A stretch of DNA of 63,525 nucleotides, filler included, from Folioceros fuciformis (lineage: Eukaryota): NCBI GenBank assembly GCA_049999805.1. It is 6 parts of 6 records of this genome, joined end to end, with 100 filler letters (N's around TTAATTAATTAA, not from the genome) between each part and the next. Parts side by side here need not be neighbours in the genome. Positions count along the whole stretch, not along the records: positions 15,509 to 26,546 come from JBNGIO010005610.1; 5 more parts are not named here. One strand, 5' to 3'. Positions within the stretch are counted from its first letter, which is position 1. Each line of letters starts with the position of its first letter. The notes beneath the pieces were generated by a model. It was not told where the DNA came from. It ran no database searches and worked only from the letters and a program-made list of their open reading frames with translations. The translations under genes were made by a program, and so were the position numbers. This document shows positions 1 to 63,525 of this stretch, in pieces.

Positions 1-423
1 AAATTATTATATATAATATTACTGAGAAGTCTATATATCTTTGTGGCCAAATCTTCTAAGTGTACTTTAATTGAGATAGAAGTATGGAATACCGGTATGG
101 ACATATGTTTTCTTTTTTTAGGGTTTAGGGTATGTCGTAGGCGAATATTCTAGTGCATCTTCGATGTACAGAAAAATAGCCGAGGGTGAAGGTGAAAAGG
201 ATCTTGACATTACTTGTATCCACAATATGATAAACCTGGACAAATTACATACATACCTACCCACAACACCCGTGAGTCGACTCTGACAGCAGGCAGACGT
301 CACAATTTTATCTGAAATGCTGACAACGTCGTGTGCGTGTGCTTCAGGCCCCCATGAGTTATGAGTTATGTATACAGAAGAGAACAGAGGGAAGCAGGAA
401 CTGATCATCCAGGTTGTCAAGTC

Positions 424-3400
424 ATGGCAGCTCACTTCCTGCTGCTCTTGCTGGTGCTGCCCTTAGTGTCCGTCTCTGCTGCCGAATTATGCACTCCACA
501 AGATGCTGCCTACCAGACTGCTGCGGGTCCCGTTCCTGGCATGCTCAATGTCCACTTGGTTCCTCACACCCACGACGATGTGGGCTGGCTCAAGACCGTA
601 GACCAGTACTACGTCGGCTCCAATAACAGCATTCAGGTACTGCGCATTTTGCATTGAAACAATTTGCTTCGCATGCTTGCCTCCCTTTCTTGCATGCTGT
701 CTCGGGGTCCATTTTCTCCGTGTCCTCCCTTATTAGTTCGATGGCGGCTGGCAGGTGGCAGCAGTGCAGTACATTTTGGATTCTGTTGTCTCCTCGCTCC
801 TGGAGGACCGGAATCGCAAATTTGTCTATGTCGAACAGGCGTGTGTTCTCACTCACAGATGATTGTATCGGGCGGAAGTTGGAAGCTGGGATTGATAGCC
901 TACTGTAGCTCACTGCACGACCTCGTTTGGACAGGCCTTTTTCCAAAGGTGGTGGCGGGTGCAGTCTAAGGCCAAGCAGGAAATTGTCAGAAAGCTGGTG
1001 GACGATGGGCAGCTGGAGTTCATGTACTTTGCGCTTCCCACCTTTCTGATTCTGGTGCAAAATTTCGGAGATGGATTAGGGCCATCAAGGATCTCATGTG
1101 CTCTGCTGATCTTGTGTCAGCAATGGAGCATGGTGCATGCATGATGAGGCGACGACGCACTACATTGACATGATTGATCAGACTGCTCTTGGCCACCGAT
1201 TCATCAAACAGCAGTTCAACAAGGTGCCAAGGATTGGCTGGCAAATTGATCCATTTGGCCATTCTTCGGTCCAAGCGTATCTGCTGGGAGCCGAGGTGAG
1301 TTTCAGCAAGAGATGTCGCAGATACGCTGAGAAGCTCACGTCAGGCTGGTTGACTGGCGATCCTCTCTTCAAATTCGTTGGTGTGCTCATGAGACCTGAT
1401 TGCAGTAATATGTGGATATGTCGGTTGAAAACATTATCCTGTAAAAAACGATGGATGCAGCTGGGCTTTGACGCGGTTTTCTTCGCTCGAGGAGATTACC
1501 AAGATGTGGCCAAAAGGCGCAGAGATCGGTCCATGGAATTCATTTGGCGTGCTTCCGAGTCTCTGGGGGAATCTTCTGAGGTCTAGTTCTGAGCCACAAA
1601 CCACAAGAGTGCCCATTGTAGTTGACCTTTAATCAGGAATTGCATTCAGATCTTCGGGGGAGTTCTTGCACATCACTATGACCCCCCAAACGAGTTCCGG
1701 TACGACATCCACAATACAGAGCCCCCAATCCAGGTCTGATTTCGCTACAAGTTGGTCTGCATTTTCACAAACCTTCTCTGCTAGGCTTTAACTGTGATGC
1801 ATGATGTTTTTGCAGGATGATCCTCTCCTCTTTGACTACAATGTTCCAGATCGAGTGGATCTTTTTGTGAAATATGCTCAAGATCAGGCAGGTTCTCGCT
1901 CTCATGTATAGTTGCAACTGGGGAATTGGGTATGTCTTTTTCTGTCCTCACGGTCATTCTTGGTCTTGCTTAAATTGTTACCAATATCCGATGCTGTCCA
2001 TCAGGCTGCAGAGTTCCGGACAGAGCACATAATGTGGACGATGGGAGAAGATTTTGCTTATGAAAATGCCAACACTTGGTTCAAGCAAATGGACAAGCTC
2101 ATACATTACGTTAATAAGGCAATTGCTTGCAGGCCAAAACATCGTCGTCTATCCAGCATACTGTCGGACCTCTAGCTCTTAGTAACAAGGGCGACGTATC
2201 TCATTCGTGTTTGCTGTTTGCTGTGATGGCTTACTTCTTGGGCGGGACAGGATGGCCGTGTCAATGCCTTCTACTCAACTCCCTCTGTCTATCTTGATGC
2301 TAAGTATGCAGCCAATGAGACCTGGCCCTTGAAATCTGGTGATTTCTTCCCGTACGTAACTTACTTACCCGTGGGCTGGTTCCAATACTGTCGCTGCTTG
2401 AAATCGTTGCGGCACTTAAACGCTGAACTCTGCAGGTATGCAGACTCTGCAGCCAGCTACTGGACAGGGTACTTCTCAAGTCGGCCTGGATTAAAGGGAT
2501 ATGTCCGCAAACTTAGTGGCTATCTCCTAGTAAGTCGAGTAGATCTTTCTGAATCTGGGAAAGGATTCCTAAAATTTTTCCACTGACCAGTTTCCTGAGA
2601 TAGTTCGTGTTCCCTACTCAATTGCCTGATAGGCAGCCAGGCAACTTGAGTTCTTGTTGGGGAAAAGTGCGGTAAGATCGAGCACAGATTCACTGGAGGA
2701 AGCCCTGGCTATTTTACAACATCACGATGGAGTTAGCGGTACTGAGAAACAGCATGTAGCTGATGATTATGCTGAACGTCTAGCAATTGGTGCCGCTGAG
2801 GTGAGCACACTGTTTCAGTTCGATGGTTTTGTACTGTCTTGCTGGCTCAACGTCATGCATTGCTTTCTTTCATAGAATGTACCTTGAACATGATATAATC
2901 TGGGGATTCCTTCTATCTGCTGTGGGACCTGCCATTCACGTACTTGTAGAAAAGCAGTTCAGTTTTGACGTATCCCAATTTTTTGGAGTGTTAACAGTCT
3001 GCAGATATTATAAGTGCTGCTTTGACCTACTTGCTGCAAGGCAACGCTCCTAGGGCTGCAGTTTCACTGAGGAATGAGGTCTCAGAGGCTTTTTCTTTGC
3101 ACCGTCGTGGTCTGGAAGGAAGTCAAAGACATACCAGTGGTAAATTGAAGCTAGAACAGGTTAGGTCTTCGACCAGAAATTAGTTACGTCTTCGACCAGA
3201 AATTAGTTCCTTTCAAGTAGTGCATTGAACTCTGCCTGTTCTGTGTAGTGTCCTTTTTTGAACGTGAGCTACTGCCCGCCATCTCAGAGAGATTTTGGTG
3301 ATGGAAAAGTTCTGGTAATTCATAACCCTCTCTCCTAAAAAACTATGAACAGCATTCTGGATGCGTTACGACTGTAAACTAGGTGGGCCTTATTACGAAC

Positions 3401-6400
3401 CGTCTGTCTCTGCAGGTCTTGGTAGCCTACAACTCTCTTGCTTGGACCAGAAAGGAGTGGATACGACTGCCTGTAAGACAAGTTGGACGAAAAACAAACA
3501 TATTTCCTGAAGCTTGAACATCGCTGATGCCTGAACGTCCCTGTGAAGGCCTGAAAGCTTACTTGCATGGAACGCAGATGGTGATAGGGGATAGCCTCAC
3601 CCTGTATGTTTGCACTGTCAGGTTACATCAGACCATCTGGAGGTTACTAATGACTTGGGGATCACGATACCCTCACAACTGGTACCGGTGGACCAGTACA
3701 TGGTGAACAAGCTTCAGAAGGTATATGTCAGGGCACAGTTGGGAATTAGCGCAAGCCAGTCTGCTTCATACACATTGGTCTTTCAAGCCTCTGTACCTCC
3801 TCTGGGATATACCACCTTTTTCATCCGCGAAACATCCGCCGCGAGCCTTGGTACGGTCTTGGTTCGCGGATGTGTTTTCTTATGTACACTATCTTTTCAA
3901 GATTCTCTGTCCACGACTAGTCATGTATCTGGTGATTGAATGTGACTATCTGGTCCCGTGAGTTCTCTCTGATCCTTCATCTTGGGTAGGTCGAGCTGAG
4001 CTCTCGACTGTCGAGACAGCAGCTTCGGCGGGTCATGTTGATTTGAATTCTGAAAATCTGGGGTTAAGGTTTTCTACCTCAAGCGGACACCTGCAAGCAG
4101 TTTCACAGGTCAAAACTGGGGTAAGCTCTCCATCTTACGCTCCAAGCCTTTTTGTACAGATCTTGTTGTACTATTCTGCTCGATAATTCAGTGCTAATGC
4201 AAAGATGCAGAGTGTCAAAGGACGGTTTGAAAGCACGATCTTGCTATCGAAGATGTAGGAGTGTCGTTGTTAACCTCAACTTGTTGCCCTTGTAGACTGT
4301 CATTGACCTGGAGCAGTCTTATTGCTGGTACAATGGGAGTGCTGGGAATGCGGATGACCCGTACCATCAGGTTCCACCAACGTCGTTTACTGCTTGTCTT
4401 AAACCCTGGAAAGCAGCGAAAGTGAAAGACCTCTAGTAAATGTCTTTGTGCAGGCATCTGGGGCTTATATTCTGCGTCCCAATTCTTCGACATGCTTTCC
4501 TGTTGGTGAAGCTATTTCAGTGAGTTTAAGACTCTTACGCACAAGGGCAGTCTCAAATCTTCTACGTTGGGGAGGGAACCAGGGGTTGGGTGAGAGGTAG
4601 CCCCATTGAGGGCAAGAACTTCTTTCACATTCGTCACCAAAAGTGTCCATTTTGCAGGCTCCATTAACGGTCGTGAAAGGTGCATTAGTTGAAGAAGTAC
4701 ATCAGCGATTTGCCCCCTGGATCTCTCAGGTTTGTAGTCCTGAAGCTTGGCGTGCCCGAAGGCGATTGTTGCTTATGTACTAACTGCATTATCGCAGTTC
4801 CGCATGACGAGGTATTGTGTGTGTGCAAACATAGTATGAAGTAACTGAACTGAAAGTAGATTGGATGATGGCACTGGTGCATCTTGTCTAGCCAACTCAT
4901 GTTATTTGCCCTCCTTCTTGGACCGTGGACTCAGTTCTTCGACTTTGTGTAAATTGAGCTCTAGCAACCGTTCTTGAAGGACCAAAGTCTTTTTGCAATT
5001 ACTGACCTTGGAGTACTTGGACGTTTGTAGGTTATAAGGTTGTTCAGGAATTCCGAGTTCGCGGAAGTAGAGTTCTCGGTAAGTTATTGGATAGCCCTTT
5101 AAACACTAATGTAGAAATTCAAGGAATGTTGACAGAGAATTATGTTGTCTTCAGTCCTGTGATGGATTGCTTCCATTCATGTCAAACTTTCGGGAGTTTG
5201 AGCAGATAGGTCCCATACCAGTCGATGACAACCTTGGGAAGGAAGTGGTGACCAAGTTCTCCACTAGCATAGCAAGCGAAAAAAAGTTTTTCACAGATTC
5301 CAACGGTCGTGACTTCATTGCACGGGTGAGCTTGCTGCATTTCTCGGACATCCGAGCAGGGTTTCTTCCTGGCTGAAACAACCAGAATGAGAAGGTTGAG
5401 CGTGGAGTGACTTGCTGTGGGCCATTTGATAGGTGAGAGACTACAGGTCCGACTGGGAGTTGAATGTCACACAACCTGTAGCTGGCAACTACTATCCGGT
5501 AAGATATTGCTGAGCTCTCGTCATGAGTTGCAATCGTGATATAACCGGTCTTGATGCTTCGGAGCCGGACTGGGGCTGTCTGCAGCTCAACTTGGGCATG
5601 TACTTGAGGGATGAAGATGCAGACTTCTCCCTGTTAGTCGATCGTGCAGTGGGCGGAGCCAGCCTTGCCGATGGTCAGCTGGAGGTCATGCTTCACAGGT
5701 TTTGCCCTGCTTGCTTAATGGGCAGCACTTAAATATGGCTGTACACCATACGCTAACTCAGTGTGGCTGGTTTTGCCTGCCGTTGCTGATGCTAGCATAT
5801 GGACTGAGCGCACCAATCTCTCAGTATGGTTGTTTGTGCCTGCTGTTGTAGGTGCTAGCATATTTGACTGAATGCACGTTGTTCTCCGACATGCAGGCGC
5901 TTGTTATACGACGATGGAAAGGGGGTTGGTGAGGCCTTAAATGAGACGGTGTGTGTACAAAACACTGGAGTCTGTGAAGGCCTCACGGTACGTGAATTCC
6001 TGAAGCTGCTGCTTCCTTGAGGAAGGTTTGGAGAGGAGAAGAGATTGTTGATGACTAGGTGTGGGTGCCCAGGTGAACGGGGTTGTGCTGTTGGGCATCA
6101 ATGCGGTTAAGGAAGCCCCTAAATGGCGTAGATCCCTGGGACAACGGTTACTTGCTCCTCTCCAACTAACCTTCACAGTACTGGAGGTACGTTGTCTGCG
6201 GTACATGCAAATTCTCATGTGGTGCGTAAGCTTGTGCAACAGAATTCCAATGAATCTTGGTGGTGCAGGACGATGCCGAGAATCGCCTCAATGTACTACA
6301 ATTCTCTGCAGTAGATCCTGGCTATGAGCTCCCACCCAATGTGGCTTTGATCACTCTCCAGGTGTGGAACTACTCAGAACCATCACATGCATGCACGAGG

Positions 6401-12933: not shown

Positions 12934-15408
12934 TCAAGGGCTAAAAAAATATGGGTCAGCATAAGTGAGTAAGGTGGGTAAAGAATCTAAGGCTGATGTA
13001 TCGGGAGTCTGATTTACAGAATTTGGCTGAACCAGAAGTTCTGACCCATCTAATGAGTGCTTAACTCTGTCCTGTATATCATCAGGGCTAGCAGCAACGA
13101 GAGGTTCAACATTGGTAGAGAGCAGCACTGGGAAATCATGGGGGGGAAAACTTGAAACATCATCAAAATTAGATTCTTCAATATGAGTAACAGAAAACTG
13201 ATTATTAGGTAAGGAGTCCAGATATGGCTTGGTTGGAGATAATAACTCCTTAAATGTAATGCTCCAAGCAAAAACTGCTACTTGGGTAAGTGTGTCATAT
13301 AACTTATGTGCTTTCACTTCCTCTCCGTACCCTATAAAAATCATACGTTTAGCTTGGCCTTCCAACTTATGACGTTTGGCAGCTGGTACTTATACATATG
13401 TAGGAGAGCCGAATACTCAAAGATGAAGTAGATTCGGCTTCCTTCGCTACATGACCTCAAAAGGTGTCTTTCCAACAACTGCTTTGGTCAAGAGTCGATT
13501 AAGAAGGTAAGTAGCTATTACCACAGCTTCGCCCCAGAAGGCCTTACTTAACCTTGATCACTCCAGCATGCTCCTGGTCATCCCTAACAAAGTTTGATTT
13601 CTTTGTTCAGATACGCCATTTTGCTGCTGAGTGTAGGGCACAATTAGTTGTCTACCAATTCCATGATTTGTCAGATATAGATTGAAGTGAGAGTTAACAA
13701 ACTATGTCCCATTGTCTGTGCGGAGACATTTCAACGAACTACTAATCTAGCGTTGGACCATGCGCAACCACTCCTTAAAGATGTCAAAAGTGTCAGACTT
13801 GAGGAAAAGAGGGTAAGTCCATGAATATCTACGGTAGTCATCGGTAAGAGTAAGGTAGTATTGGGCACCTCCCAAGCTAGAAATGTGAATTCTACCAGAG
13901 ATATTGGCATGGACTTACTCTAAAACTTGTGATGCACGATGTACTACAGACCTAGGAAACAAAAGTTCCTCCAGCTTAGCGACAACATAGGCGTCACACA
14001 GAGAGAGATCCTTGAAACACTTTGGCAAAGGTTCCCTATGACAAGTAAGGCTAGACATCTGGATTAATTTATCACAATTTGCATGACCTAACCTGGCATG
14101 CCAGAGACTGGCTTCATCAACGTGGGACAAACGAGGAGAGTGAACAACATCACCAGATAAATACAATCATTTGATAGAGATTGTGAACTAATAGGCCATC
14201 AGCTACGTTTGTTCTATCTCCCCCTCTCTTCACCATAGTATAACCAATAGAGGTGAAGAGGAGATCAGACTGATGCAGTGACAAGAGCTGGCTGACAAAT
14301 AACAAATTCTTAGCCATGTGAGGAACATGCAAGACATGATCCAGGTGAAGGATTGAGCCATAAAAACGACGAAAACGACAAGTACCACTCCCCCTAATCC
14401 ACAACTCTGTACGAGTAAGTTCATCTCCTAGCAAGGCATTGTTAGTAGTAACAGAGGGCCTATAGGAACTAAACAAAGACTGATCTTTGTAGATATGAGA
14501 TGTGGAACTAAAGTCAAGGTACCAAACATGTGAGGGGGAAGTAATAGAAGAAACAAGACAAACTGTCATCACTACGAGTTGCTTGCTTGAAGAGGAAGAA
14601 CTATCTTTAGTGGTAGCCACGCGAGCTTCACCCGGTCTGCTAGGTTTCTCAGCTTTGCACGGTTCACCACCTTTCTTCTTCCGATATTCCCTTTCCCAAT
14701 GGCCCTAGATACCACACCAATTGTAGGTACCAATCCATTTTGTTGAGGCAGGCTTGGATGGAGAAGCTCCAAAGGTAGGCCTACTGTTATTGTTCTTTCC
14801 TTGTGTGAAAAGAACCTTGTCAGTTTTAATTCGTCCAGTATGTGGGAAAGAATGTAATCAACTTTGCTACTCTCGTAACAGAGCCCCGACCACATCCGTG
14901 AAATTGATGCGAGGGGTTTTTACCAATTGCCACGACCTTGTCAGCTTCACACTAGGAAGCACCATTGCTAGAAACAAAAGGCTGGTAGCTTAGAGGCAAA
15001 CTAGTGAGAAGTTGGGCAACAACATCCAACTCAGGAAATGAGGAGCCAAGGTGAATTAGTTGAGCATGCAATTGTCGAAAGCGAAGAATAGAAGGTGAGA
15101 CCTTTTCTCCTTCCTTTAAACGTAGAGAGAACAATTCTCCTCTAATAGTGCACATTGTGAGTATGTTTTTGCTTTATAAGTTTGCAGGAGTTGCGTCTAA
15201 ATGTCCTTTGCTTTGGGAATAAAGGCCACATCAAGAAGAAGAGCCTTGTCCAATCCACTAATGAGAACGACACGAGTGACATTATTAAGGTTATCCCACT
15301 CGTTCTTGTCTTCTTCTGTGGTCGTTGCAACGGGCTCAGGAATCATTCCACTAACAACTCCCCATACGTGCTATGCTTGTGGGGCAGCTATAATGCGCAC
15401 TTGCCAAC
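12934..15408 (-). mobile_element. Degenerate Ty1/copia gag-protease-integrase remnant (no RT), cut by a contig end
   Basis: Gag CTIRGELFSLRLKEGEKV, protease WYLDFSSTSH, GAG-pre-integrase LWHARLGH and integrase tail MIFIGYGEEVKAHKLYD, with many stops. Same family as 47216-52889 (shared SSSSKQLVVMTVC, GDELTRT, REPLPKCFKDL). Confidence 0.9.
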
Positions 15409-15508
15409 NNNNNNNNNNNNNNNNNNNNNNNNNNNNNNNNNNNNNNNNNNNNTTAATTAATTAANNNNNNNNNNNNNNNNNNNNNNNNNNNNNNNNNNNN
15501 NNNNNNNN
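15409..15508. other. Artificial assembly linker N44-TTAATTAATTAA-N44
   Basis: Identical 100-bp structure occurs five times; the 12-mer gives stops in all six frames. Confidence 0.97.
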
Positions 15509-15599
15509 CAGCACACTTATCTCTCGTCTTTGCCTTTCAATCTAGCTTGCACCTTACATGTCTGTGCTTCCCAGTCCCCACTACAAGGCAAGAAGAGCT

Positions 15600-18040
15600 T
15601 CCAGCCATCGCTTGCCGGCAGGTTGCGGGGCCTTGGGCCAACGCGTTGCATCCTGCCGCACCTCACGGAAGCTTCAAGTTCAGTATTTGCACTTGAGGAA
15701 TGGTACTGTGGGAGTGAGTGCCCTCGCCAAAGGCTTTTGCGGCAGGGAACCTGGACTTGCGGGAGAATGAAGGTGGGAGTTGCTGCAGCACCTGGCCAGC
15801 ATTCTGGCGTCTGCTCCCGAATTCAAGAATCTGCCACAGCATGACAGCAACATGGATGTGGCCGGAGCGCATGGATTGGGATGCTCTTCCGCTCTGTTCC
15901 ACGCTCCGCAAGTTTAAGCGGTGTTCGAACACGGCGAGCGCCTAGCCGGACAGCATTCCTTGGGAATATTCAAGGATGGATTTGTTGCTACAACTTTGCT
16001 GCATGGAACCTTGAACGACATCCTCGACCACACGCAAATGCAGGGCATTCGTGCTGAATACCTGGTATTATTGATGAAGAGACTAAACTTGTGCTACGAA
16101 GATCATGCCAATCGAAGCCCAGAATTCTTCGTTCCCTTCACCTTGGATGACGCTGAAGGTAAAGCTCTTCAAGGGGAACGACAGCTGGATTGGAAGGGTG
16201 GTGCGGCGTCCAAGTACAATTACGTGGGCAGGCGGCTACAATTCCGAGATGAAACAAAGACATTTCTCGGTCCAGGCTGCTCAAGATTCCAGATACGTTG
16301 CCGTCTGAGCTCTCTTTTGTTAGTCATATAACCTCTCTTGGGTTTTATGACGTGGCCATTGCTGTGTTGTGTTGTGACTCGAGTTCTTGTAGGGCGGAGA
16401 TGTGGAACATGGATGGCAGCCTTCCAACAGAAGGACCCATTCGTCCTATAGCCTGTCTTGCACTGCCACCGCTCCAATCGGAAACCTGAACCCTCTACTG
16501 ACGGCTAATATGAGTTCATGACCGGGGCAATGCCAATGGCATCATATCATGCTCAAATGAGGAAGTGCAGAAGGAATTTCTTCTACGCCCTACCATGTCC
16601 AGCAGACAATCTCAGGACGAAAGGTTCCAAACAGGCTGACGGTGGAGAGGACGAAAGGTTCCAAACAGGTTGAAAGTGGAGAGGACTAGAGCTTATTCAC
16701 ATCAGGACTCTTTCTACCTGGAACATTCGGCGGACGGGGTCCACAAATTGAGGGTTTGTCTTCCGACAATGTGGAGAATGAGACTGTTTTTCCTCTCCTT
16801 GTTTGCTCCTTGTTTGGCACACACTGAATAGCATAAGTGTTCATGCCCCCATATCTGGGGTCACCAAGCTGCAGTTGCGTATCTGGAACAGCGAGGAGCC
16901 AGGCCTGGCCGACGCGCTGGCCGGAATGTTGCGCACCATTGATTGTATCACGGAGCTTAGGATCGGCTGTTTTGTTGTCAAGTTCGGCCTAGACACCTGG
17001 CGCCACAACTCCACCCGCTCTCATCTTATGTTGTGGAACTACGACGGTGACGAGTCGTTAAGTCAACTTTCGATGTCGTTTCTGGAATGCAAATCGGTAC
17101 GCATCCTGAGTTTGGAATGGATAAACTGGCCCTCTTCCCTAACACCGTTGGTGCAGTCTTTGGAGAAAAATACACCTTTGAATGAGCTCCGCTTTGTGTA
17201 TTGCGTGGCACTCGACGATGAGGGACTTTTCTCCCTTGGGCAGGCATGGTATATATTTTCGAGGTACGTACAATCTGGGATTTGAATCAACCCAGACGGG
17301 CAGTCTCATTCAGAGGGAAAAGGTCCAAAGGAAGGGATGACGATGAATGGGCTGGGAGCCTAGCTGAGCTGCGCTGAGCTGAGCAGAACTGAGGTGGTGG
17401 GATCCTACAGTCCATAGACCCACCTTCCATGTGAAGGAAGGCATCTCTCCTGCGTTGGTCTGGAAGGGTGGTACAGCGCTCAAGTACACGTACTTAGGGA
17501 GGCGGCTACTATGCCGAGAGACTGGACGGGTGGTACAGTGCGCAAGTACAACTACTTAGAGAGGTGGCTACAATGCCGAGATAAACGAACACGTTTGTCG
17601 TCCTGGCTTCTTTCCAAGATTCCAGGTACGTTACCTTGTGAGGTCTGTGACATTTCGTTAGTGATATATGCTCTCTTTGGCTTTCATGACATGGCCAATG
17701 GTTGTGCGTTGCAGGTCAAGTTACGACAGATCTTGTTTGATGGACCCTAGGGTATGCACTGTCATCAGTATAGCATTGCACGCAACTTGATCAAATTTAA
17801 CTAGTATGTTATGGACGTATTTTTGGAGAGCAGTGGGGATATTGGGGAGGAGACCGGGGAAATTGGTGATCGTGTTGACATTTTGATGAGGTCACTCAAG
17901 AGCAAAGACAAAACGATCGAATTTCTCCAGCAGAGTTTGGTTGCGGAGCTGAGAGCATTTTGTGCTTCTCCTGAAGGTAGTCCTGGAGTTAAACTAGTAG
18001 AAGGGATCATCAGGACTGAGTGTGTGGAGAACCTCAGAGA
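15600..18040 (+). pseudogene. Scrambled fragments of TORNADO1-like ROCO (LRR-ROC-COR) genes
   Basis: COR-like segment LVLLMKRLNLCYED..FFVPFTLDD..YVGRRLQFRDETKTFLGPG (15921-16300). A paralogous segment reads PGFFPRFQ, intron, VKLRQ (17460-17750), followed by VDILMRS..LRAFCASPEGSPGVKLVEGIIRTECVENL. LRR-like pieces at 15600-15850 and 16803-17240. Stops, frameshifts and local duplications; no ROC GTPase piece seen. Confidence 0.72.
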
Positions 18041-18106
18041 AGGAACCATCGTATCCAAAGTCAGTCACAGGGACCGCCTCTACTGGAGTCAGGGAAGGAA
18101 CCGTCA

Positions 18107-18778
18107 TATCCAAACGAAAGGGAGAAAGCAGGTCACGGGCGAGGTCTTGCAATGATAGTCAGTATAGAAAAAGGCAGAGATGGAGGACAGCTAGACAGAG
18201 GGCGACCCGACGTTCTTCTCCGTGGTCTGCCCTTGAAGTTTGAGATGGCCTGTGTGGTGGACGATCTTAAGGATGCGAAATCAACGTTGGAGCACGTTGT
18301 CAGGCATCCTGACTTCGATAAGGACGATTGCTTTCTGTTTTACGTGAATGCCCATGGTGAGACTGAAGAAGATGGTAGAGAGTATGTTTGCCTAGGTGAA
18401 GCAGACAAGGCGGAGAAGCTTTATGTTGAAGAAGTTAGTTTGAAGCCCATCGCTGAATGCGGGAATTTGGCAAACAATCCTAAGGTGGTTGTCATAAATG
18501 TTTGTCGACGCACTGGCAGTCTTGCCAAAAGCGTGAAAGCGCAGCGTTCAGGCACCGCCAGCCTTGCCACTAGCAGCAAAGCCGTGGGCTCAGACGTTGA
18601 GGAAAGCCAGGGTCCCAGCAAGAGAATTCGACCCCTGTATTATGCGAGCAACTTTGTCACCGTGTACTCCACCAGTCTTGGAGACGAATCTTTGAGAGAT
18701 GTCAAGAAAGGCCCAAACTTCATCATAGCTTTCATGAACTTCATCATAGGTTTTGTTTTTGTATGTTTGCTTAGGTGA
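18107..18778 (+). pseudogene. Caspase-like peptidase C14A domain (p20, linker, most of p10), 3' end rearranged
   Basis: Within ORF 18020-18778: YP..GRGLAMIVS, RDGGQLD, DCFLFYVNAHG (His codon 18353), CGNLANNPKVVVINVCR (Cys codon 18503), a Ser/Ala-rich linker, then SNFVTVYSTSLGDESLRDVKKGPNFIIAF. The 3' end is broken by a copy of 18382-18420 at 18761-18799. Confidence 0.8.
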
Positions 18779-19619
18779 AGCAGACAACGCCGAGAAGCTG
18801 CGGCGGAGTGCGGGAAGCCGCTGCGGGTGGGATCATTCTGTACCTCGTTGCCCGTGGCTGAGGCCACCACGTGATCTCATCGTCACTTGCTTAACAAAAA
18901 GAGATATCAGTGATGGTCACGGAGATCACCCCTCATGAAGTTTGGATGAGGTCTTCAAGAGTTCTGACCGTTAGGAACTCTTTTTTTTTTATCGAACATG
19001 GCCCACTGCTGGAGAAGTGTCGGATCGATCATGGTGCATGCTAGTCCTCGGGACTGGAAATTCAATGCCAGGACTACAACAGAAGGGAATAGTAGGATGA
19101 GGTTGATTGTGCGAAGCCATGATGCAGACCAGATTTTGTCCCCGCGGCCCGGTGACGGAAATGCGTCAGGTGCATTTCAAGCCTGGCGAGCTTGCCAGTG
19201 CCACACAAGTAAGGCAGTGGAAAGCGTGCGCATCTGCCTGGTTTGAAGAACTGCCTGGTGTCGCAGCCCTTGTGTTGCTTGTTCATGGTTTGATCTTTCG
19301 GCTTGCTTTCAGGTAGACCAAGGGCATGTCAGGCAGTGTGGAACAATTTCATTGCGGACAGCACTACTGGCAAGGTATGATGCTCTGGTGGCTGAGGATT
19401 AGCTGTTGAATTCGAGAGCACCCAGGCACGGACTGACTCGCACTTAGTGCACTGCAAAACGAGGAGAGCTGCTTGTTTTGAATTCTGGTCGAATCAGGTG
19501 CAGTGCAGATAAGCTGCCCTCAACCGGTCATTCAGCCAGGGACTCTACCCTCAATCGGAGGAAAGAGTCCAGGGACGGCGGAAAGCTGAAGGAACGCGAG
19601 CGAGCGTTGTAGATGTAAC

Positions 19620-21366
19620 GATGTCCATGGATGCAGTGACCTTTCCAACGATGGACTGGCTGGTGACAGGGAAATTTGTGGCATGGAATGCACTGGTTCC
19701 TGGGAATGCAACGGAGGGGCTCGACTGTTCTGTATGGACGTTTGTTCTGTCTAGACAGAATGGATCAGGAGGGCCTGATTTTGGCGGACTATGGCACTGT
19801 TTGTGTCCCTGCTGCAGGCATGTGCAAGTTTGGGCATACCAGTAAAGGTCACTGGAGAGTAGCTTCATGCGGAGATAAGGGAAAGAGGGTTTGACGGGGA
19901 TCTATTCTTGGGCAATAGTTTAGTCAACATGTATGCAAAGAATGGCAGCTTGAAAGACTTGAAGAGAGTGTTTGACGCATCCGAAAGGAAAGATGTGATG
20001 ATTTGGACCACTCTACTCGCAGGATATTCCCAGCCGGGCATGGGCCAGGAAGCCCTTGCTCTTTACGGAGCAATGGAAGAGGAAGGCATTGTTGCACCTG
20101 ATGCTGTGACATTTGTGTGCCCACTGCACGCATGTGCAAGTATGGGATCCCCAGCTTTGGAGATGGGGAATCAGCTTCATGTGCAAATTACGGAACAAGG
20201 GTACCAAGCTGATGTATCTGTAGCCAACAGTTTGGTGAACATGTATGCAAAGTGCGGCAGTCTGGAGGATGCCCAGGAAGTGTTTGATGGACTTGGTCAC
20301 AAAGATGTGGTGACATGGACTGCTCTGATTTCAGGATACGCACAGGAGGGCATGGGCAAGGAAGCCCTTCAAGTGTACGGTGCCATGGAAGAAGAGGGCA
20401 TAGCTGTGCCAAATTCTGTGACACTGACGTGCCTCCTGCAGGCCTGTGCGTGTGTGGGGGCCTTGGCTTTGGAGATGGGGAAGCAGCTGCACACCCAAGA
20501 ACAAGGGCTTGAAGCTGATGTGAACGTAGCCATCAGTTTGGTGAAGAATGTACTCAAAGTGTGGTAGCCTAGATGATGCGCAGAGGGTGTTTGGCAGATT
20601 AGATCGGAAAGATGTAGTGACGTGGACAGTTCTCATTGCAGGATATTCACGGCAAGGAATGGGCGTCAAGGCCCTTAGCGTTTACCGTGCTATGCAAGAG
20701 GATGGGGTAGCTGTGCCTGATTGTGTCACATTAGTGTGCTTCCTGCAGGCGTGTGCAAATGTGGCAGCTTTGCATCTGGGAAGGCAGCTACCTGTGCGGA
20801 TCAAACAGCAAGGATTTGAAGTTGATGTAATTGTCGCTGGCAGTTTGATTAACATGTATGCAAAGTGGGGAAGCATGGTTGAAGCACGGCAGGTGTTCGA
20901 TTCATTGTCTGACAAAACCATCGTTGCCTGGAACGGACTGATTGCAGATTACAGCCACCAAGGAGATAGTGAAGAGGTTTTGGACTTGCTTCGCAGAATG
21001 GGAGTGGACGGTATACTGCCAGACATCATAACGTTCCTTGGTGTGCTGACAGTCTGTGGTCATACAGGTCAAGTGAACAAGGGGTGGGAGTCCTTCGAAA
21101 GCATGAGCAGCCACAGTGGCATCACCCCAACGGTGGAGCACTACGCATGCATGGTAGGTCTCCTGGGCCGTGCACGCCGACTGGACGAGGCACAAGGCCT
21201 GGTCAGGAGCATACATGTACCACCTGATGCCACAGTTTGGCACACTCTGTTGGGGGCCGCTCAAAAGTGGAGGAACGTGGAGGTTGGACGCCATGCTTTC
21301 AAGCAAGCAGTGAAGCTAGACAAGAAAGATGCAGCAGCCTACGTGTTGATGTCCAACATGCCCTAA
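19620..21366 (+). pseudogene. PLS-class PPR protein with E domain (organellar RNA-editing-factor type), frameshifted and truncated
   Basis: Repeating P-L-S motifs (NSLVNMYAKCGSLEDAQEVFD, VVTWTALISGYAQEG, VTLTCLLQACA), S2 TPTVEHYACMVGLLGRA, E1 VWHTLLGA and E2 AAYVLMSN. Frameshift near 20547, stop at 21364 inside E2, decayed 5' part. Intronless. Confidence 0.92.
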
Positions 21367-24026: not shown

Positions 24027-24675
24027 AAGTATGCACTGATGCTCAACAGCAGTAATTTATGATTATCCCCAACCCAAACTCCAAACTTTCACATCCTACA
24101 TAGCAGGACAACTCTATCATAGAGAGAGGGGATTGTGGAGATTATTATGTTCACCACAAAAAGTATAAGTTTAAGTAATCTCAAGTTATATACAAATAAA
24201 TCGAGATTGACAAGGTATGAGGTTGTTGGGAAGCCAACCTTTATTTCTTGATTCCTTGATAGCTTTATGAAATGGATGTGTTACTATATATGTATTGGTA
24301 AATTTAAATATGGAGACTTACTATCTTTTAGAAGATTATAAATGTATGCTTAGATTACTAGTTTAATGTATACAAGTGTTCATTGAGACTCCATACGTTG
24401 CCCATAGATCGTAGTTAGTGTGATCTTTTGTGCCTTAAGCTTGCCAACGTCATTGAGGCCAAGCATGACATCATTCCTCTCTTCTAGTCCCCATATTGAG
24501 GCCAAGCATGACATCATTCCTCTCTTCTAGTCCCAGGTGCTCACCTACATGTGTACCATAGCCGAGCTATCTAAGTACAAACTGAAGGCCGACCTTCGTA
24601 TGAACCGCAGTTTAGAAGGACATATAGCCTGTTTCTCATTCCAATACAGAGTCTGACTATTTTTTTTCCTTTGGC

Positions 24676-24870
24676 AGGCATCATATATTTTCGAGTTATG
24701 TACATACAATGTGGGATTTTGAAGCAACCCGGAAGGACAGTCCCATTCAGAGGAAAAATGTCCAAAGGACAGGATGACAATGAATGGGCTAGGAGCCTAG
24801 CTGAGCTGAGCTGGTGGGATTCGACGCTCCACAAACCTAACTTCCATGTGAAGGAAGGCATCTCTCCTGC
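24676..24870 (+). repeat. Diverged direct duplicate of 17241-17452
   Basis: Shared CAGGCAT..ATATTTTCGAG, CATTCAGAGG, TGAATGGGCT.GGAGCCTAGCTGAGCTG and CTTCCATGTGAAGGAAGGCATCTCTCCTGC; both copies end at the same base. Confidence 0.88.
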
Positions 24871-25642: not shown

Positions 25643-25871
25643 CTATTGACCAGTGCGGATATCTTGCACTCCTGGTTTCCCTTTGTGGGAGGGCTCCGGA
25701 ACAGCCCCGCCATCATCTCGAAAGCCCATGCATCTGGCCAATGTGCTTTTGCCTGCTCCTGACTTGCCAACCATGAGGATGCGCACCGCTCCAAACGCAG
25801 TTTTGGCGTTCTCCACGCAGTCGGCGATGGACAGATACTCTTGCTTCAAGCGTCTTTGGACGTGGGCCATC
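25643..25871 (-). pseudogene. N-terminal fragment of a P-loop (TRAFAC-like) GTPase
   Basis: VRILMVGKSGAGKSTLARC is a hydrophobic strand plus Walker A, followed by SHKGKPGVQDI; no G3/G4 motifs before the stop. Confidence 0.55.
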
Positions 25872-26546
25872 TTGCTTGAATCGTGAGATCTAGAGCTCTG
25901 TCCGATCCTCCCAGCTTCGAAGTTTGGGGCTACTTGTGGAAGAGTCGCTCCCTTCAATAAATTTATTGAAATCCACTTGCGTTGTCAGAGAGTGGGCATT
26001 GGGTGTGAAGTAAGTTTGAAGTCTCGAGCAAGCAAAGCAGTCTCCAGTCTCGTGCAGTTGCAGGCTCCAGTCTCGTGCAGTTGCAGGCTCGTGCCTTGGA
26101 AGGTTCCTGCTCAAAGTGATGGATGTTTAAATAATGAGTCGCTGCCGCTAGTAGCTAGTGGCCTTGTGGTGGCGTAGCTAGTGGCCTAGTGGGCTCGTGG
26201 AACCTTCCAACAACGAGACGGAAGAATCAGTGAAGAAGCATGTTGGACAGTGCATTGTGTGTCAAGCAGACAAAGCGGAACATGACAGACCTCGAGGTTT
26301 GTGAAACAGGACGACGAGTTGGCCCCTTGCGTCCATCAGTTAGAAGGTCACCTGGCAACGAAGCTGCCCTAGCCGACAGGAACTCGGCAGCGGGAACCTC
26401 ACCAAGTTCAGACGCCTTTGAAGAACGAAGTATAGTTTATCCATATCTATCGGAATTAAGCAAGGATAAATAGGTATAATGAATAAGTAAGACGGGGTGA
26501 AGTACAAAACCGAATCTTAACACTAAGACTAACCATCCTTAGGCTA

Positions 26547-26646
26547 NNNNNNNNNNNNNNNNNNNNNNNNNNNNNNNNNNNNNNNNNNNNTTAATTAATT
26601 AANNNNNNNNNNNNNNNNNNNNNNNNNNNNNNNNNNNNNNNNNNNN
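26547..26646. other. Artificial assembly linker
   Basis: N44-TTAATTAATTAA-N44. Confidence 0.97.
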
Positions 26647-33900: not shown

Positions 33901-34052
33901 AGCATGAAGAAGCTAAGGCGTTGGCATAAGTGATTATTACATTGAGGTTTTAAAAAAGCCTAAAACAGAGAGCTAGTTGTAACCGTTTTAACCTAACTTA
34001 AATACGAACCGTTATTGGCTTAGTGTCTGAATAGGTAATTGCCAATCCTACA
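27946..34052 (-). mobile_element. Full-length but degenerate Ty1/copia LTR retrotransposon
   Basis: Direct LTRs at 27946-28156 and 33850-34052. PBS TGGTATCAGAGC (tRNA-iMet) at 33838-33849 and PPT TGAGGGGGCG at 28157-28166, both on the minus strand. Gag (RFNGSDYPIW, CHWCRIPGHFESEC), protease WFLDSGATHH, integrase (LRSDNAKEY, QNSYAER), RT (HQMDVKTAFLNG, LYVDD) and RNase H (YADAHWA, SSTEAEY). Split by stops and frameshifts. Confidence 0.96.
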
Positions 34053-34054
34053 AA

Positions 34055-35160
34055 ATGAAGCCTGGCGAAGGAGAGGACAGCTACGTGAAGAACTCGTCAA
34101 TGCAGTCGCACTTTATTCAGGTGGTGGAAGCTCAGCTGTGGCACGGGATTCGATCTGCTTCCCGCGTTCCAGAGATGGGCAATTCCTGGAACGCCCTATG
34201 CGTAGCAGACCTAGGATGTGCCACGGGTAACAACACCATCAGAACCGTGGACAAGCTCCTGGAAAGTCTGGCAGCGCTGTGGCAGTCCAAGAGTGGCCGG
34301 CTGGACCTGCACCTGCAGCGGCGGCCCTTCCCCAAGGACGTTCAGGTTTTCTTCACCGACCTACCGTCCAACGATTTCAACACTCGCTTCTGCAGCTTGT
34401 CCCGTCACCAAGCTGGATCCAGGCGCTATTTCGCAGTCGGTGTCCCTGGATCCTTCTATGGCCCGCTGTTTCCCGCCACAAGCATCCACACTTTCACCTG
34501 CTTCACCGCGCTGCATTGGCTGTCCCGAGTACCTCCCGAGGTCCTGGACGAGAATTCCCCTACATTCAACTTTGACAGGGTGCACGTCCGTGGCGCCAAT
34601 CCCGCCATGGAGCGGGCCTTTGCTGGCCAGAGCCACAACGACCTGACGGAATTCTTCACCAACCGAGCCAATGAGCTGGTACCTAGAGGGTTCGCTGCCC
34701 TGGCCATACTTGCCAAGCCAGACGAGCAGCCGCACCGAGCAGCACTCTTGGACATGTTATTCGACACCTTCCACGAGCTATCTGTCCAGGGTGTTATCCC
34801 ACGGGATCTCATCGAGACCTTTAACATCCCCCTCTACATCCCGAGTATCGCACAAGTGAGGCGGGCTGTGGAGCGGGCAGGCCTCTTCGACATCCACTTC
34901 CTGCAATCCTGCGGTGACATCTCCTACTACCCTGCAGCCAAATGTGCGGAATACTGAGCGGATGTCAAAAGTTTTGCGAGGGAAAGTGCTTTGATGTGGA
35001 AGGGCGTCTTCCTCACAATCATACTGGAGCACTTCGGTCAGGAGTTGAACAACGTGCTGTTCAACCAGTTCGAGCATCATGTGCAGACACTTCATCTTCA
35101 GTCTAGCGATCCAAATGTGGACGATTACTTCACCATCAATCTCTTCTGACCAGGAAGTAG
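34055..35160 (+). pseudogene. Intronless SABATH-family SAM-dependent carboxyl methyltransferase with a premature stop
   Basis: MKPGEGEDSYVKNS, VADLGCATGNNT, FFTDLPSNDFNT, GVPGSFYGPLFP, ALHWLSRVP, ELVPRG, FNIPLYIPS. In-frame TGA at 34955; homology continues (IILEHFGQE..LFNQF) to a shifted LTRK-stop ending at 35160. Confidence 0.9.
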
Positions 35161-43459: not shown

Positions 43460-43559
43460 NNNNNNNNNNNNNNNNNNNNNNNNNNNNNNNNNNNNNNNNN
43501 NNNTTAATTAATTAANNNNNNNNNNNNNNNNNNNNNNNNNNNNNNNNNNNNNNNNNNNN
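43460..43559. other. Artificial assembly linker
   Basis: N44-TTAATTAATTAA-N44. Confidence 0.97.
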
Positions 43560-52889: not shown

Positions 52890-52989
52890 NNNNNNNNNNN
52901 NNNNNNNNNNNNNNNNNNNNNNNNNNNNNNNNNTTAATTAATTAANNNNNNNNNNNNNNNNNNNNNNNNNNNNNNNNNNNNNNNNNNNN
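52890..52989. other. Artificial assembly linker
   Basis: N44-TTAATTAATTAA-N44. Confidence 0.97.
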
Positions 52990-56938: not shown

Positions 56939-57038
56939 NNNNNNNNNNNNNNNNNNNNNNNNNNNNNNNNNNNNNNNNNNNNTTAATTAATTAANNNNNN
57001 NNNNNNNNNNNNNNNNNNNNNNNNNNNNNNNNNNNNNN
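56939..57038. other. Artificial assembly linker
   Basis: N44-TTAATTAATTAA-N44. Confidence 0.97.
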
Positions 57039-58013: not shown

Positions 58014-61000
58014 CTACACTCCTAGGCTGGTCACACCTGCTGTGTCCGGTTGGCACTTGGGACAATACCAAAGTTGCTCCGGTACATGGGTAAGTGGTGG
58101 CTGTAAGCAGAAAAGGTGGAAACCCCCATTGCAGCCATCACAAAGTAACATGAGGTCAGCATCATCTGTGCGTTGACAAACCTGACAAGGATAGTCCGTT
58201 GGTGGAATCCAATCTGCTGTGACAATAGAAGGATCAAGATTGGGCAAGTGGCAAGGTGCGCAATTCTTGGTGTGGTCAGTGGTGATCCGACCATCTGAGC
58301 CTTGCAATACCAGGATGCCATTAGGCTTGACCTCCTGAATCCGCAACACATGCCGACTGCTGGAAGTGTCCAGGGTATCTGAGGTCTGCCTCTGCAGGTA
58401 AACAAAGTCTCCTACCTGGAACTTCCTGAGCTTGGGCCTAAAACTGCCTCCCCTAGTGTGTGCATAACGAAGGGTATCCCTATGCTGGGCAATGTGCAAG
58501 TTAGCCATTGCCATGGGCATGGCCTGTTTGAACAAGGCTGCCCTGTTACCTATCACACGTGCCCATGTAGCTGCATCATCCAGCTTGACAACTTCTAGCA
58601 TTTGTTTGGCTATAGAACTAGGTGGAATTGGTTCTCTGCCAAACAAGAGGAAGTAAGGGGAAAAATGGGCAAGGGCAGCATGCTTGCTCATGCGGTAACC
58701 CATTGCAATATATGGAAGCAAGAGATCCCAATCTGTTTTGGGTTCTCGGAGACACAGCTTGCGAAGCCCCTTCTTCATAGTCTGGACCATGCGCTCGGCT
58801 AAGCCATCAGCCTGCGGGTGGTCCCGGCTAGTTCTCCTGTGGTCAATAAGGGCTGCATCCATTAGATCCTGGAATTCTCCTCGAAACTCAGAACCCTGAT
58901 CTGTGAGACACTCTGCGCAGCCACCAAACCTACTGAGCACACATTGTAGGAAGGCTTGTGAGGTACTCCTAGAGGTCTTGTCTGGCAGGGCCACTACCTC
59001 CACCCACTTGCTGAAGTGTTCCATCATGATCATCGCATACAGGTTGCCTCGTGGAGACTGCGGGAGCTCACCCATCAGGTCGCATGACCATCTAAAGAAT
59101 AAACCCATGATGGGCAAAGGGTGCAGCTCTGGGTGCTGCATGGTGAAGGAAGCCTTGACACGGTCGCATTGCTCGCAACAGGCTACTCGTTCCTTCACTT
59201 GTTCATGCATTCGATTCCAGTAGAAATAGGGAGTCAACAGGCTGTAGGTGCGTTTGACCCCAAAATGACCCATGTCATCATGCACCCTTTTGATGAGGGC
59301 AGCACGATCTGCTGGTGGGGGTACCAATCGCTCCACTCCTTGAGCCTGTTGACGGATGAGATGTCCGTCCCGCCAACAATACTTGGTAGCCCGTTGGTGA
59401 ACTCGTTCCCTTGTGGCCGTGGTCCAAGTGGGGTCCTCTCTACCTGTCTGCACATACTGAAGGGTAGCTGGATCCTCCCAAATATCCTTGGAGGATTGCT
59501 GAGCTGCACCTACAGGCACCTGTCCCAAGCAAGTCATGGCCACCAGAGCCGATACGGCAAGCATTGTGCTGTACTCTTCATCTTGGCGAGCTCCAGTGGT
59601 ATCCACACAACTGCTGTCAGGATTTCGTGACAAGGTATCAGCATTCTGGTGCTTCACTCCTGGCCGATGTTCAACCTGGAATTCGTAATCTTGAAGGATC
59701 ATGGCCCAACGTGCGAGTTTGCCACTGAGCTTGGTGTTGGTCATCAGCCACTTGAGTGGTTGATGGTCTGTCACGAGTGTGAACTTCTGACCATATAAAT
59801 ATGGTCTGAAGTGGCACACTGCCCACACAGCAGCGAGGCATTCACCCTCGTAGCTGCTATAGTTGGCTTCAGCTCGATTGTTGCTACGCGAGGCGTAAGC
59901 AACCACACGCTCACAACCTGCTTCATCCTGTTGAGCCAACACAGCCCCTAGCCCTAGACTACTCCAATCTGTGTGAACTACAAAGGGCTTGTTAAAATTG
60001 GGTCTGGCCAACATTGGTGCAACTGTTAGCTCCAGCTTTAAGGTGTCAAAAGCTTGTTGTGCCTGCTCTGCCCATGTCCACTCTACATCCTTGCGCAGCA
60101 GATCATTAAGAGGCTTGGCAATCCTGCTGAAATTGGGTATGTATACTCGATAGTAATTGCATAACCCTAGAAATGAACGCAGGGCTGATACGGTGGTCGG
60201 TTCCTTAACCTGCATAATTGCCTGAACCTTGGCAGCATGTGGGGTGACACCATTGGGGACAATTCTGTGACCCAAATACGCCACAGTGCTCATGCCAAAC
60301 TCACACTTGGCTGGGTGGCACGTGAGTTGTGCCTTCCGTAATCTTATAAACAGGTCTTCCAGGTGTACCAAATGATCCTTGAAGTCCATGCTGTGGACTA
60401 GCACATCATCAATGTAGCACATGAGATAGCCGGCTCCAGCTAGTACTATGTCCATGATGCGCTGAAAGGTCACTGGCGCATTCTTGAATCCAAAGGGCAT
60501 CACTAGCCATTCCCATAGCTGTTGAGAACCATGGAAGGCTGTCTTCTTGATATCTTCAGCTGCCACTGGGACCTGGTTAAACCCTTGTCGCAGGTCCAGC
60601 GTGGAGAAGAACATAGACTGTCCAAGACGGCCAAAGATCTCCTCTGGTGTTGGCATTGGGTACCGATCTTGGGCAGTTACTGCATTGATGGGCCTATAGT
60701 CGCCACACATCCTCTTCTCAGTCCACAAACCCTGACTGTCCTTTTTGGGTGGCATCACGGTGGCAGCAGCGTAGTCACTGTTAGAGGGACGTATTAGGTT
60801 CGCCTCATACAGCTCCTTGCATCTTGCATCCACCATGTCCCATTCCGTCTTGCTCAGCCTATACCGTCGCCTGTATACAGGCTCTTGGGTGGTAAGGTTG
60901 ATGCGAAAGGTTGTGACATTGCACCTCTTGAGCTCATGCATGGAAAAGGCAAAACAGTCCCTGTACCTAAGCAGCAAGTTATGAATGCGGTCCTGTTGCT

Positions 61001-63518: not shown

Positions 63519-63525
63519 CCATGTG

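Follow-up and report, generated by a model that had tools for sequence, protein, structure and literature searches.

The stretch of DNA analysed here (hereafter called the window) comprises 63,525 nucleotides from Folioceros fuciformis. It consists of six contigs concatenated via five linkers of the form N44-TTAATTAATTAA-N44 (15409-15508, 26547-26646, 43460-43559, 52890-52989 and 56939-57038), and features on different pieces are therefore not physically linked. The locus in question is located on the contig piece 15509-26546, where a caspase-type protease domain follows, on the plus strand, a stretch that is probably the end of a COR domain. Further COR-like pieces lie upstream, and the coordinates of all features are collected in Table 1.

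The caspase-type domain and the COR-like pieces

The stop-to-stop frame 18020-18778 (+, 252 aa) matches Pfam Peptidase_C14 with an E-value of 9.8e-12 (45.5 bits, cut-off 21.4), and the match spans positions 1-188 of the 233 in the profile. A family hidden Markov model (HMM) of 13 relatives, from which the window row was excluded, recognized the same frame with an E-value of 8.3e-41, and for every other frame of the window the E-value was not below 1. The initial annotation had placed a caspase domain downstream of a COR end on one strand, and its caspase domain is thereby confirmed. The codons of the catalytic residues are present, at 18353-18355 for the histidine (NAHG) and at 18503-18505 for the cysteine (NVCRR). 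The same holds for the arginine codons of the R.G...D motif (18176-18178) and the S.R motif (18695-18697), two residues which we take to be those assigned to the Asp-binding S1 pocket of caspases. The family alignment has eight invariant columns, all of which are kept in the window, in addition to H88, N136, R139, T194 and R202; within the 14-row alignment C138 is invariant and H88 nearly so, and the window retains both. Moreover, R.G...D, HG, CR and S.R....G..F align with P0014, an animal DED-caspase, and the best match among PDB sequences is the large subunit of caspase-6, with a weak E-value of 0.036.

The domain is incomplete, as the C-terminal helix and the last strand (the p10-like part, corresponding to roughly the last 45 Pfam positions) are gone. 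The match to the family HMM stops at position 206 of a model that is at least 247 positions long, and the missing remainder was not found elsewhere in the window by tblastn or with the family HMM. A possible caspase tail at 15684-15839 (tblastn, E 0.039) was dropped, since it was not supported by the family HMM.

Upstream of the caspase domain, the frame 15918-16331 matches the COR-A profile PF16095 at profile positions 94-140 of 143, with an E-value of 0.0069 and 16.7 bits against a cut-off of 35.3. This frame has lost its splice donor (CAG/AT), and a part of it (16188-16361) is repeated at 17520-17700 with 75% identity (blastn). This second copy leads via an intron to the exon 17715-18035, the sole detectable relative of which is the N-terminus of the database protein P0003.

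For comparison we used contigs from three public runs of the same organism (X1, X2 and X3) over 15509-20500 with at least 88% likeness. The joints 17624 to 17715 and 16281 to 17712, with depths of 212 and 146, were seen only in X3, a run that is only guessed to be RNA, and they lie at the intron borders. This implies either that the exons share a transcription unit in other copies or that an intron-less copy exists.

The succession of a COR-A end, a COR-B start, an intron, the P0003-like module and a caspase domain is the order expected if a caspase had been fused to a ROCO tail. To judge from these sequence matches, the module that precedes the caspase is probably a genuine COR domain from a ROCO or TORNADO1-like protein. 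The TORNADO1-like COR end of the initial annotation stands in so far as its peptide ..GVKLVEGIIRTECVENL is present at 17985-18035, in the frame of 17805. The assignment to COR, however, rests on the one weak COR-A match upstream, and membership in TORNADO1 was not confirmed; the likeness of the pieces to that protein is presumed and serves as a lead only.

The initial annotation had also seen an LRR-like piece at 16803-17240, a position between the two COR pieces. The open frame is real and extends over 16782-17285, but the leucine-rich repeats (LRRs) were not confirmed by Pfam, PDB, AlphaFold or periodicity. The frame gave no Pfam match and no PDB sequence match at E ≤ 10, its AlphaFold model was unusable with a mean predicted local distance difference test score (pLDDT) of 34, and there was no significant periodicity at 20-33 residues; the core motif was counted 5 times vs 2.1 in shuffles (P=0.04). 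A 34-nt tandem duplication (16614-16681, 91% identical) separates this frame from the COR-A-like piece as part of the spacer. A minus-strand frame of 113 aa at 25643-25984 with a Walker-A motif (..ILMVGKSGAGKSTL..) was considered as a possible ROC remnant, but it gave generic P-loop/GTPase matches only, which do not identify it as one.

P0003 and the other relatives of the caspase-type domain

When 1.84 billion representative proteins were searched exhaustively with phmmer (E ≤ 1e-3), only 17 proteins (P0001-P0017) were retrieved, the best being 40% identical, and all of them (17/17) possess Peptidase_C14. In a 17-row tree, which contained no metacaspase row, the window and 12 of the proteins form a 13-row clade (support 91/89) that is separate from a neighbouring 4-row group holding two animal-type rows, including the DED-caspase. 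The terminal branch of the window is long in this tree (3.11 vs a median of 1.26), which is consistent with a pseudogene.

The most informative relative is P0003, an independent database protein of 450 aa that possesses both modules in the same order and in one open frame. Its caspase domain is complete (Pfam 1-233 of 233, E 8e-34). By tblastn, its residues 29-100 correspond to 17808-18026 of the window (E 2e-5) and its residues 176-373 to 18107-18736 (E 5e-18), and in a pairwise BLASTP comparison of the first module 21 of 58 positions are identical (E 2e-8). The linker between the modules differs, with 76 aa in P0003 vs about 60 nt in the window. Since both modules of P0003 share only 30-36% identity with the window, the arrangement must be old. 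The fact that such a divergent protein keeps the order, an uninterrupted frame and a complete caspase domain points to long-term selection on the fusion. The initial annotation had allowed for a chance juxtaposition of COR end and caspase, but the same order in the open frame of P0003, together with a colinear second genomic copy described below, shows that this is not the case; the order is inherited. The start of P0003 (MQVALLKHAI..) aligns with the start of the window exon at 17715 (VKLRQILF..), just after the 89-nt intron, and this coincidence of its first residues with an exon start suggests that P0003 is a gene model cut at its N-terminus.

The AlphaFold2 (AF2) model of P0003 reaches a pLDDT of 85-98 across the caspase domain. 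Among the matches listed by Foldseek against the PDB, all are caspases-3/6/7/8/9 or insect caspase-1 (E 1e-20 to 6e-18, TMt 0.77-0.87, identity 22-26%), and the ESM Atlas returned caspase clusters only, with scores of 0.87-0.89 that serve as leads only. No metacaspase occurs among the 17 phmmer proteins or among the listed structural matches of P0003. Since caspases are the closest matches in both sequence and structure, the domain of the window and of P0003 is to be classified, on these comparisons, as a real caspase-type and not a metacaspase-type domain, in the window with the His/Cys dyad present.

There are also differences between the relatives in regard to their N-terminal regions. In P0005 (807 aa), P0008 and P0010 one or two alpha/beta-hydrolase-like modules precede the same caspase-type domain, the Abhydrolase_6 match of P0005 (E 2.1e-5, 25.7 bits) being slightly below the Pfam cut-off of 26.3. 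The protease domain thus has a second sensor-like partner. The other phmmer relatives have no recognised N-terminal domain, except for the DED of the animal protein. Within the clade (n=13), three relatives are linked to a hydrolase-like region, nine, some of them fragments, lack a recognised N-terminal domain, and one (P0003) is linked to the COR-end module; the outcome by which the initial annotation would have been refuted, caspase paralogs that are never linked to COR, was thus not observed. A scan of metagenomes gave 172 candidate stretches, of which 8 were confirmed. Each of these eight loci contains a Peptidase_C14 frame (22-32% identity), and no match to COR or Roc was found at them in 32 of the 40 frames of at least 80 aa, the other eight overlapping the caspase frames and being mostly antisense. 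As the contigs concerned are eukaryotic but distant and low in GC, they are of little relevance to plants.

Junction, lesions and copies in the organism

The COR end stops at 18026-18035 and the caspase domain starts at 18092-18107, which gives a gap of 57-80 bp and agrees with the earlier estimate of about 70 bp. The difference in frame between the two parts was also correctly described (17805 mod 3 = 0, 18020 mod 3 = 2), and so was a short duplication at the junction: the 21-mer 18039-18059 recurs at 18094-18114 with two mismatches, whereas none is expected in 100 shuffles, and the similarity extends to 26 nt, of which 23 are identical.

Several further lesions affect this copy. The tandem duplication at 17460-17581 shifts the frame and creates a stop (translation LVWKGGTALKYTYLGRRLLCRETGRVVQCASTTT, stop, RGGYNAEINEHVCRPGFFPRFQ). 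The exon 17715-18035 contains two in-frame TAG stops (17748-17750 and 17802-17804), which are not intronic, since the sequence around them is colinear with P0003; most paralogous contigs possess a C at position 17804 (TAC = Tyr; 7 X1 contigs, 249/309 depth). The order of the pieces is scrambled, with a COR-A end, the LRR-like frame, a dispersed repeat and then a COR-B start again. In view of the 62-nt duplication, the stops, the frame change at the junction, the truncated caspase and the scrambled pieces lacking a Roc match, we are confident that the window copy, as read from its sequence, is a non-functional rearranged pseudogene with at least five disabling lesions.

The locus is not present as a single copy. 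The summed contig depth over 16010-19516 is 93-510 in X1 vs 12.4 for the exact single-copy contig, and at 18392 and 18478 the number of different contigs with the alternative base is 8-11 in both X1 and X2 and 7-9 in X3, so that the runs contain at least 8-11 variants of these segments. A 200-nt contig covering 18002-18201 with 11 differences and no gaps represents a second genomic copy that keeps the frame-broken junction colinear. Moreover, one contig each in X1, X2 and X3 shows a joint from 17344 to 18352, bridged by 22 letters that are homologous to 18330-18351; the copy represented by this joint has the first half of the dispersed repeat attached without a gap to the middle of the caspase (~18330). 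A joint from 18747 back by 384 nt to 18364, seen in X3 only, corresponds to the join of the 39-nt repeat at 18761-18799 but repeats the caspase interior in-frame in a paralogous contig. The depth, the variant contigs and the joints taken together indicate that the family is amplified and much rearranged in the genome.

Concerning the setting, the remnant of a PPR gene on the same contig piece is a neighbour outside the fusion. Only 1.1 kb separates the caspase-like frame from plant (PPR) genes, to which it is thus physically linked, and PPR repeats are extremely multi-copy in the runs of the organism, the summed depth over 20185-20351 rising to about 10,000. Other pieces of the window carry ordinary plant genes as well as many copia, gypsy and LINE remains (Pfam). 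The PPR, GH38 and SABATH genes and these remains together mark the DNA of the window as land-plant nuclear.

A single uninterrupted frame of 1836 aa on the minus strand (58017-63524) reaches the end of the window and encodes a gypsy-type polyprotein with aspartyl protease, RVT_1, RNase H and integrase, plus a PHD finger (E 9e-12). It also shows a weak match to C-5 cytosine DNA methylase (aa 504-556, E 4.3e-5) and may be a retrotransposon with a methyltransferase-like segment.

Table 1. Coordinates of the annotated features along the whole window
Feature	Position	Strand	Basis or remark
137-aa open frame, COR-A-like end then probable COR-B start (..WKGGAASKYNYVGRRLQFRDETKTFLGPGCSRFQ)	15918-16331	+	Pfam COR-A
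167-aa open frame, earlier called LRR-like, between two COR pieces	16782-17285	+	identity unconfirmed
~230-nt dispersed repeat, 77% identical to 24661-24870 of the same contig	17227-17453		blastn
Tandem duplication of the WKGG..KY.Y.GRRL stretch with a 62-nt period; its two copies of 60 nt are 87% identical	17460-17581	+	
Probable COR-B 5' exon, second copy, ending ..HVCRPGFFPRFQ with CAG/GT donor	17520-17625	+	duplicate of the tail of 15918-16331
89-nt GT..AG intron	17626-17714	+	missing from two X3 contigs reading ..RFQ/VKLRQ..
Exon homologous to the P0003 N-terminus, probable COR-B end	17715-18035	+	tblastn, BLASTP
Junction with ~55-nt direct duplication, frame 0 to 2	18039-18114	+	21-mers at 18039 and 18094
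Caspase-type Peptidase_C14 domain, C-terminally truncated	18092-18757	+	Pfam; family HMM positions 3-206; alignments
39-nt repeat (92% identical) of caspase-internal 18382-18420	18761-18799	+	out of frame; yields TGA stop 18776-18778
PLS-class PPR gene remnant (PPR, PPR_2, E motif)	19863-21366	+	Pfam; two frames, split near 20545-20564
SABATH-type carboxyl methyltransferase frame	34031-34954	+	Methyltransf_7, E 1.7e-61; ordinary plant gene, other piece
GH38 alpha-mannosidase exons	358-3936	+	ordinary plant gene, other piece

Origin of the locus and relation to known systems

We consider it moderately probable that the locus is a pseudogene relic of a multi-copy family that descended from a fusion gene of a COR-like module and a caspase. 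The ancestral gene would have encoded the C-terminal end of the COR-like module, a linker and then the caspase-type cysteine protease domain, and intact members might carry LRR and ROC further upstream. COR domains dimerise, and initiator caspases are activated by dimerisation. In an intact member, COR-mediated dimerisation could bring two caspase domains together and switch both on, resembling the proximity-induced activation of initiator caspases, with cell death or an immune response as the possible output. The window copy itself, as a pseudogene, has no working mechanism; for intact relatives, the model with the most in its favour is a C-terminal caspase-type protease that is attached to a sensor or switch module and activated by induced proximity. 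The source gene proposed in the initial annotation, with LRR, ROC, COR and caspase in one chain, is upheld only in part: the order of COR end and caspase is inherited, but a Roc match is missing, the LRR is unconfirmed and no full-length chain was found in word-index searches.

Several observations weigh against a descent from a COR-caspase gene. The COR-A match, with an E-value of about 0.007 after scanning about 75 frames and a score below the cut-off, is not decisive. No Pfam match to COR-B, Roc or LRR was obtained at E ≤ 10 for any of the pieces (including 17805-18040) or for P0003, and a two-row profile of the COR end retrieved no ROCO protein and nothing relevant from the PDB. The AF2 confidence for the P0003-like module is low (pLDDT 26-73). 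None of the 70 open reading frames (ORFs) of at least 70 aa on the contig piece 15509-26546 matches Roc; no more than 400 bp of the contig precede the COR-A-like piece, and ROC may lie beyond. The COR-end module is found in only 1 of the 17 phmmer proteins, and word-index searches with the caspase frame, the COR end and P0003, which are weak evidence, gave no longer protein joining the modules. Finally, the frame-broken junction is shared between copies, and it may therefore be that the unit amplified in this genome was at no time a working gene.

This last point would also fit a rather unlikely alternative, namely that the locus is a chimeric mosaic in which fragments of a ROCO-like and a caspase-like gene were brought together by rearrangement and then multiplied through a mobile element or segmental duplication, that a functional COR-caspase never existed in the lineage and that P0003 is a similar mosaic elsewhere. 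All segments of 16010-19516 are multi-copy regardless of whether they are coding, the pieces are out of order and short duplications occur at every junction. The dispersed repeat 17227-17453 abuts the pieces and is elsewhere joined straight to the caspase middle, and mobile elements of the copia, gypsy and LINE type are abundant in other contigs of the window. A mere mosaic, however, is difficult to reconcile with P0003, whose order, 450-aa open frame and complete caspase are kept despite the low identity. Furthermore, no terminal inverted repeats were found around the block in a search of 14000-21000, which did not reach its right border; only two inverted pairs occur there, one being the assembly linker and the other 26 nt long (77%).

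It is doubtful, though less so, that the upstream module is not a COR domain but a pro-domain specific to this family, with the COR-A-like piece being a chance Pfam match or an unrelated fragment. The sub-threshold score of that piece and the lack of any COR-B, Roc or LRR match would be explained in this way. Besides the profile search, a comparison of the COR piece with PDB sequences gave chance-level matches only (e.g. haemagglutinin, E 0.08) and no ROCO protein, and a feature search in the ESM Atlas gave no result for it. The different N-terminal regions of other members, such as the hydrolase-like ones of P0005, P0008 and P0010, point in the same direction. On the other hand, it is exactly the final 47 positions of the profile that the COR-A match covers, and after it comes an in-frame stretch whose duplicate splices to the P0003-like exon; this is the order expected of COR-A followed by COR-B.

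In contrast, we regard it as highly improbable that splicing restores the frame and that the gene at this locus works. The frame at the junction would indeed be restored by one GT..AG pair, enclosing the 71-nt interval 18022-18092, a plausible length, and the caspase frame is open over 252 codons with its catalytic residues kept. However, the donor of this interval is poor, its removal would delete a conserved R..C motif, and the joint is not among the contig joints listed. Moreover, splicing at the junction leaves the two in-frame stops in the P0003-colinear sequence, the upstream exon broken by the 62-nt duplication and the loss of about 45 Pfam positions from the domain. A relic of a family founded by a COR-like-module-caspase fusion therefore remains our preferred explanation.

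A link between ROC-COR and cell-death signalling has a precedent in DAPK1, which carries a death domain. Among the domains of ROC-COR proteins from Trichoplax, CARD and TIR are named in the legend of Figure 1 of PMC4104024. The proposed fusion resembles these proteins in the coupling of ROC-COR to cell-death signalling modules, but their adaptor domains recruit caspases or other effectors, whereas here the protease domain itself would be part of the same chain. According to PMC4104024, ROC-COR is always found in multidomain proteins and plant Tornado proteins consist of N-terminal RI-like LRRs and ROC-COR. The window resembles TORNADO1 and the plant ROCO proteins (LRR-ROC-COR) in its COR-A-like end, its COR-B-like stretch and a repeat piece that looks RI-type. 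It differs from TORNADO1, for which no protease domain is described there, in the caspase after the COR end, and from the ROCO family as a whole in the lack of a Roc match on the contig piece and in the unconfirmed LRR.

With animal caspases (MEROPS C14A; caspase-3/7/8/9) the window domain shares the His/Cys dyad and the alignable motifs R.G...D, ACR and S.R....G..F. There are nevertheless clear differences: the identity is only ~25%, the Q of QACRG is replaced by N, no CARD or DED pro-domain is present, the C-terminal strand and helix are absent from the window copy, and the context is a plant genome near PPR genes. Plant metacaspases (C14B) belong to the same Pfam family, Peptidase_C14, and to the same clan fold, but the window possesses the arginines, presumably of the S1 pocket, that are typical of caspases. 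In review abstracts, no relatives of caspases other than metacaspases are generally recognised in plants (PMC5756287, PMC10896300), and caspases are described as restricted to animals, with plants possessing metacaspases only (PMC5756287, PMC10896300, PMC13272413).

Two further systems invite comparison. The bacterial NTPase-linked conflict systems of Kaur et al. 2020 employ caspase-like effectors and are often multi-gene, with many of the caspase domains inactive (PMC7159879). Common to them and the proposed fusion is a regulatory NTPase or sensor coupled to an effector of the caspase superfamily, with modular swapping of partners; those systems are prokaryotic, whereas here the caspase domain would be of the animal type and part of a single chain in a eukaryote. 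The hydrolase-NLRs of non-flowering plants described by Chia et al. 2024 (PMC11218826) recall P0005, P0008 and P0010, which join a hydrolase-like region to the caspase-type domain, but differ from them in that no NB-ARC is present here and the Abhydrolase_6 match of P0005 is below the cut-off. Neither such an architecture nor a plant caspase-type domain was found described in open-access papers and preprints (their supplements lying outside the search); in one paper that was retrieved, "caspase" occurs only as CARD.

It might be supposed, although we hold this to be unlikely, that some land plants keep genuine caspase-type proteases, animal-like in their fold, dyad and S1 arginines, in sensor chains, either at the C-terminus of ROCO proteins or behind alpha/beta-hydrolase modules, as GTPase- or sensor-gated executioners of cell death or immunity. 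By analogy with NLR clusters, and with similar reservation, the window could in that case be a decayed member of an expanded receptor family with fast turnover. The enzymes behind plant "caspase-like" activities have long been sought in cell-death research. If intact members exist, they would provide a directly testable candidate enzyme for such an activity and, with a switch and a protease in one chain, a receptor architecture that is not described for plants. The value of the dead locus in F. fuciformis is that of a pointer to this family.

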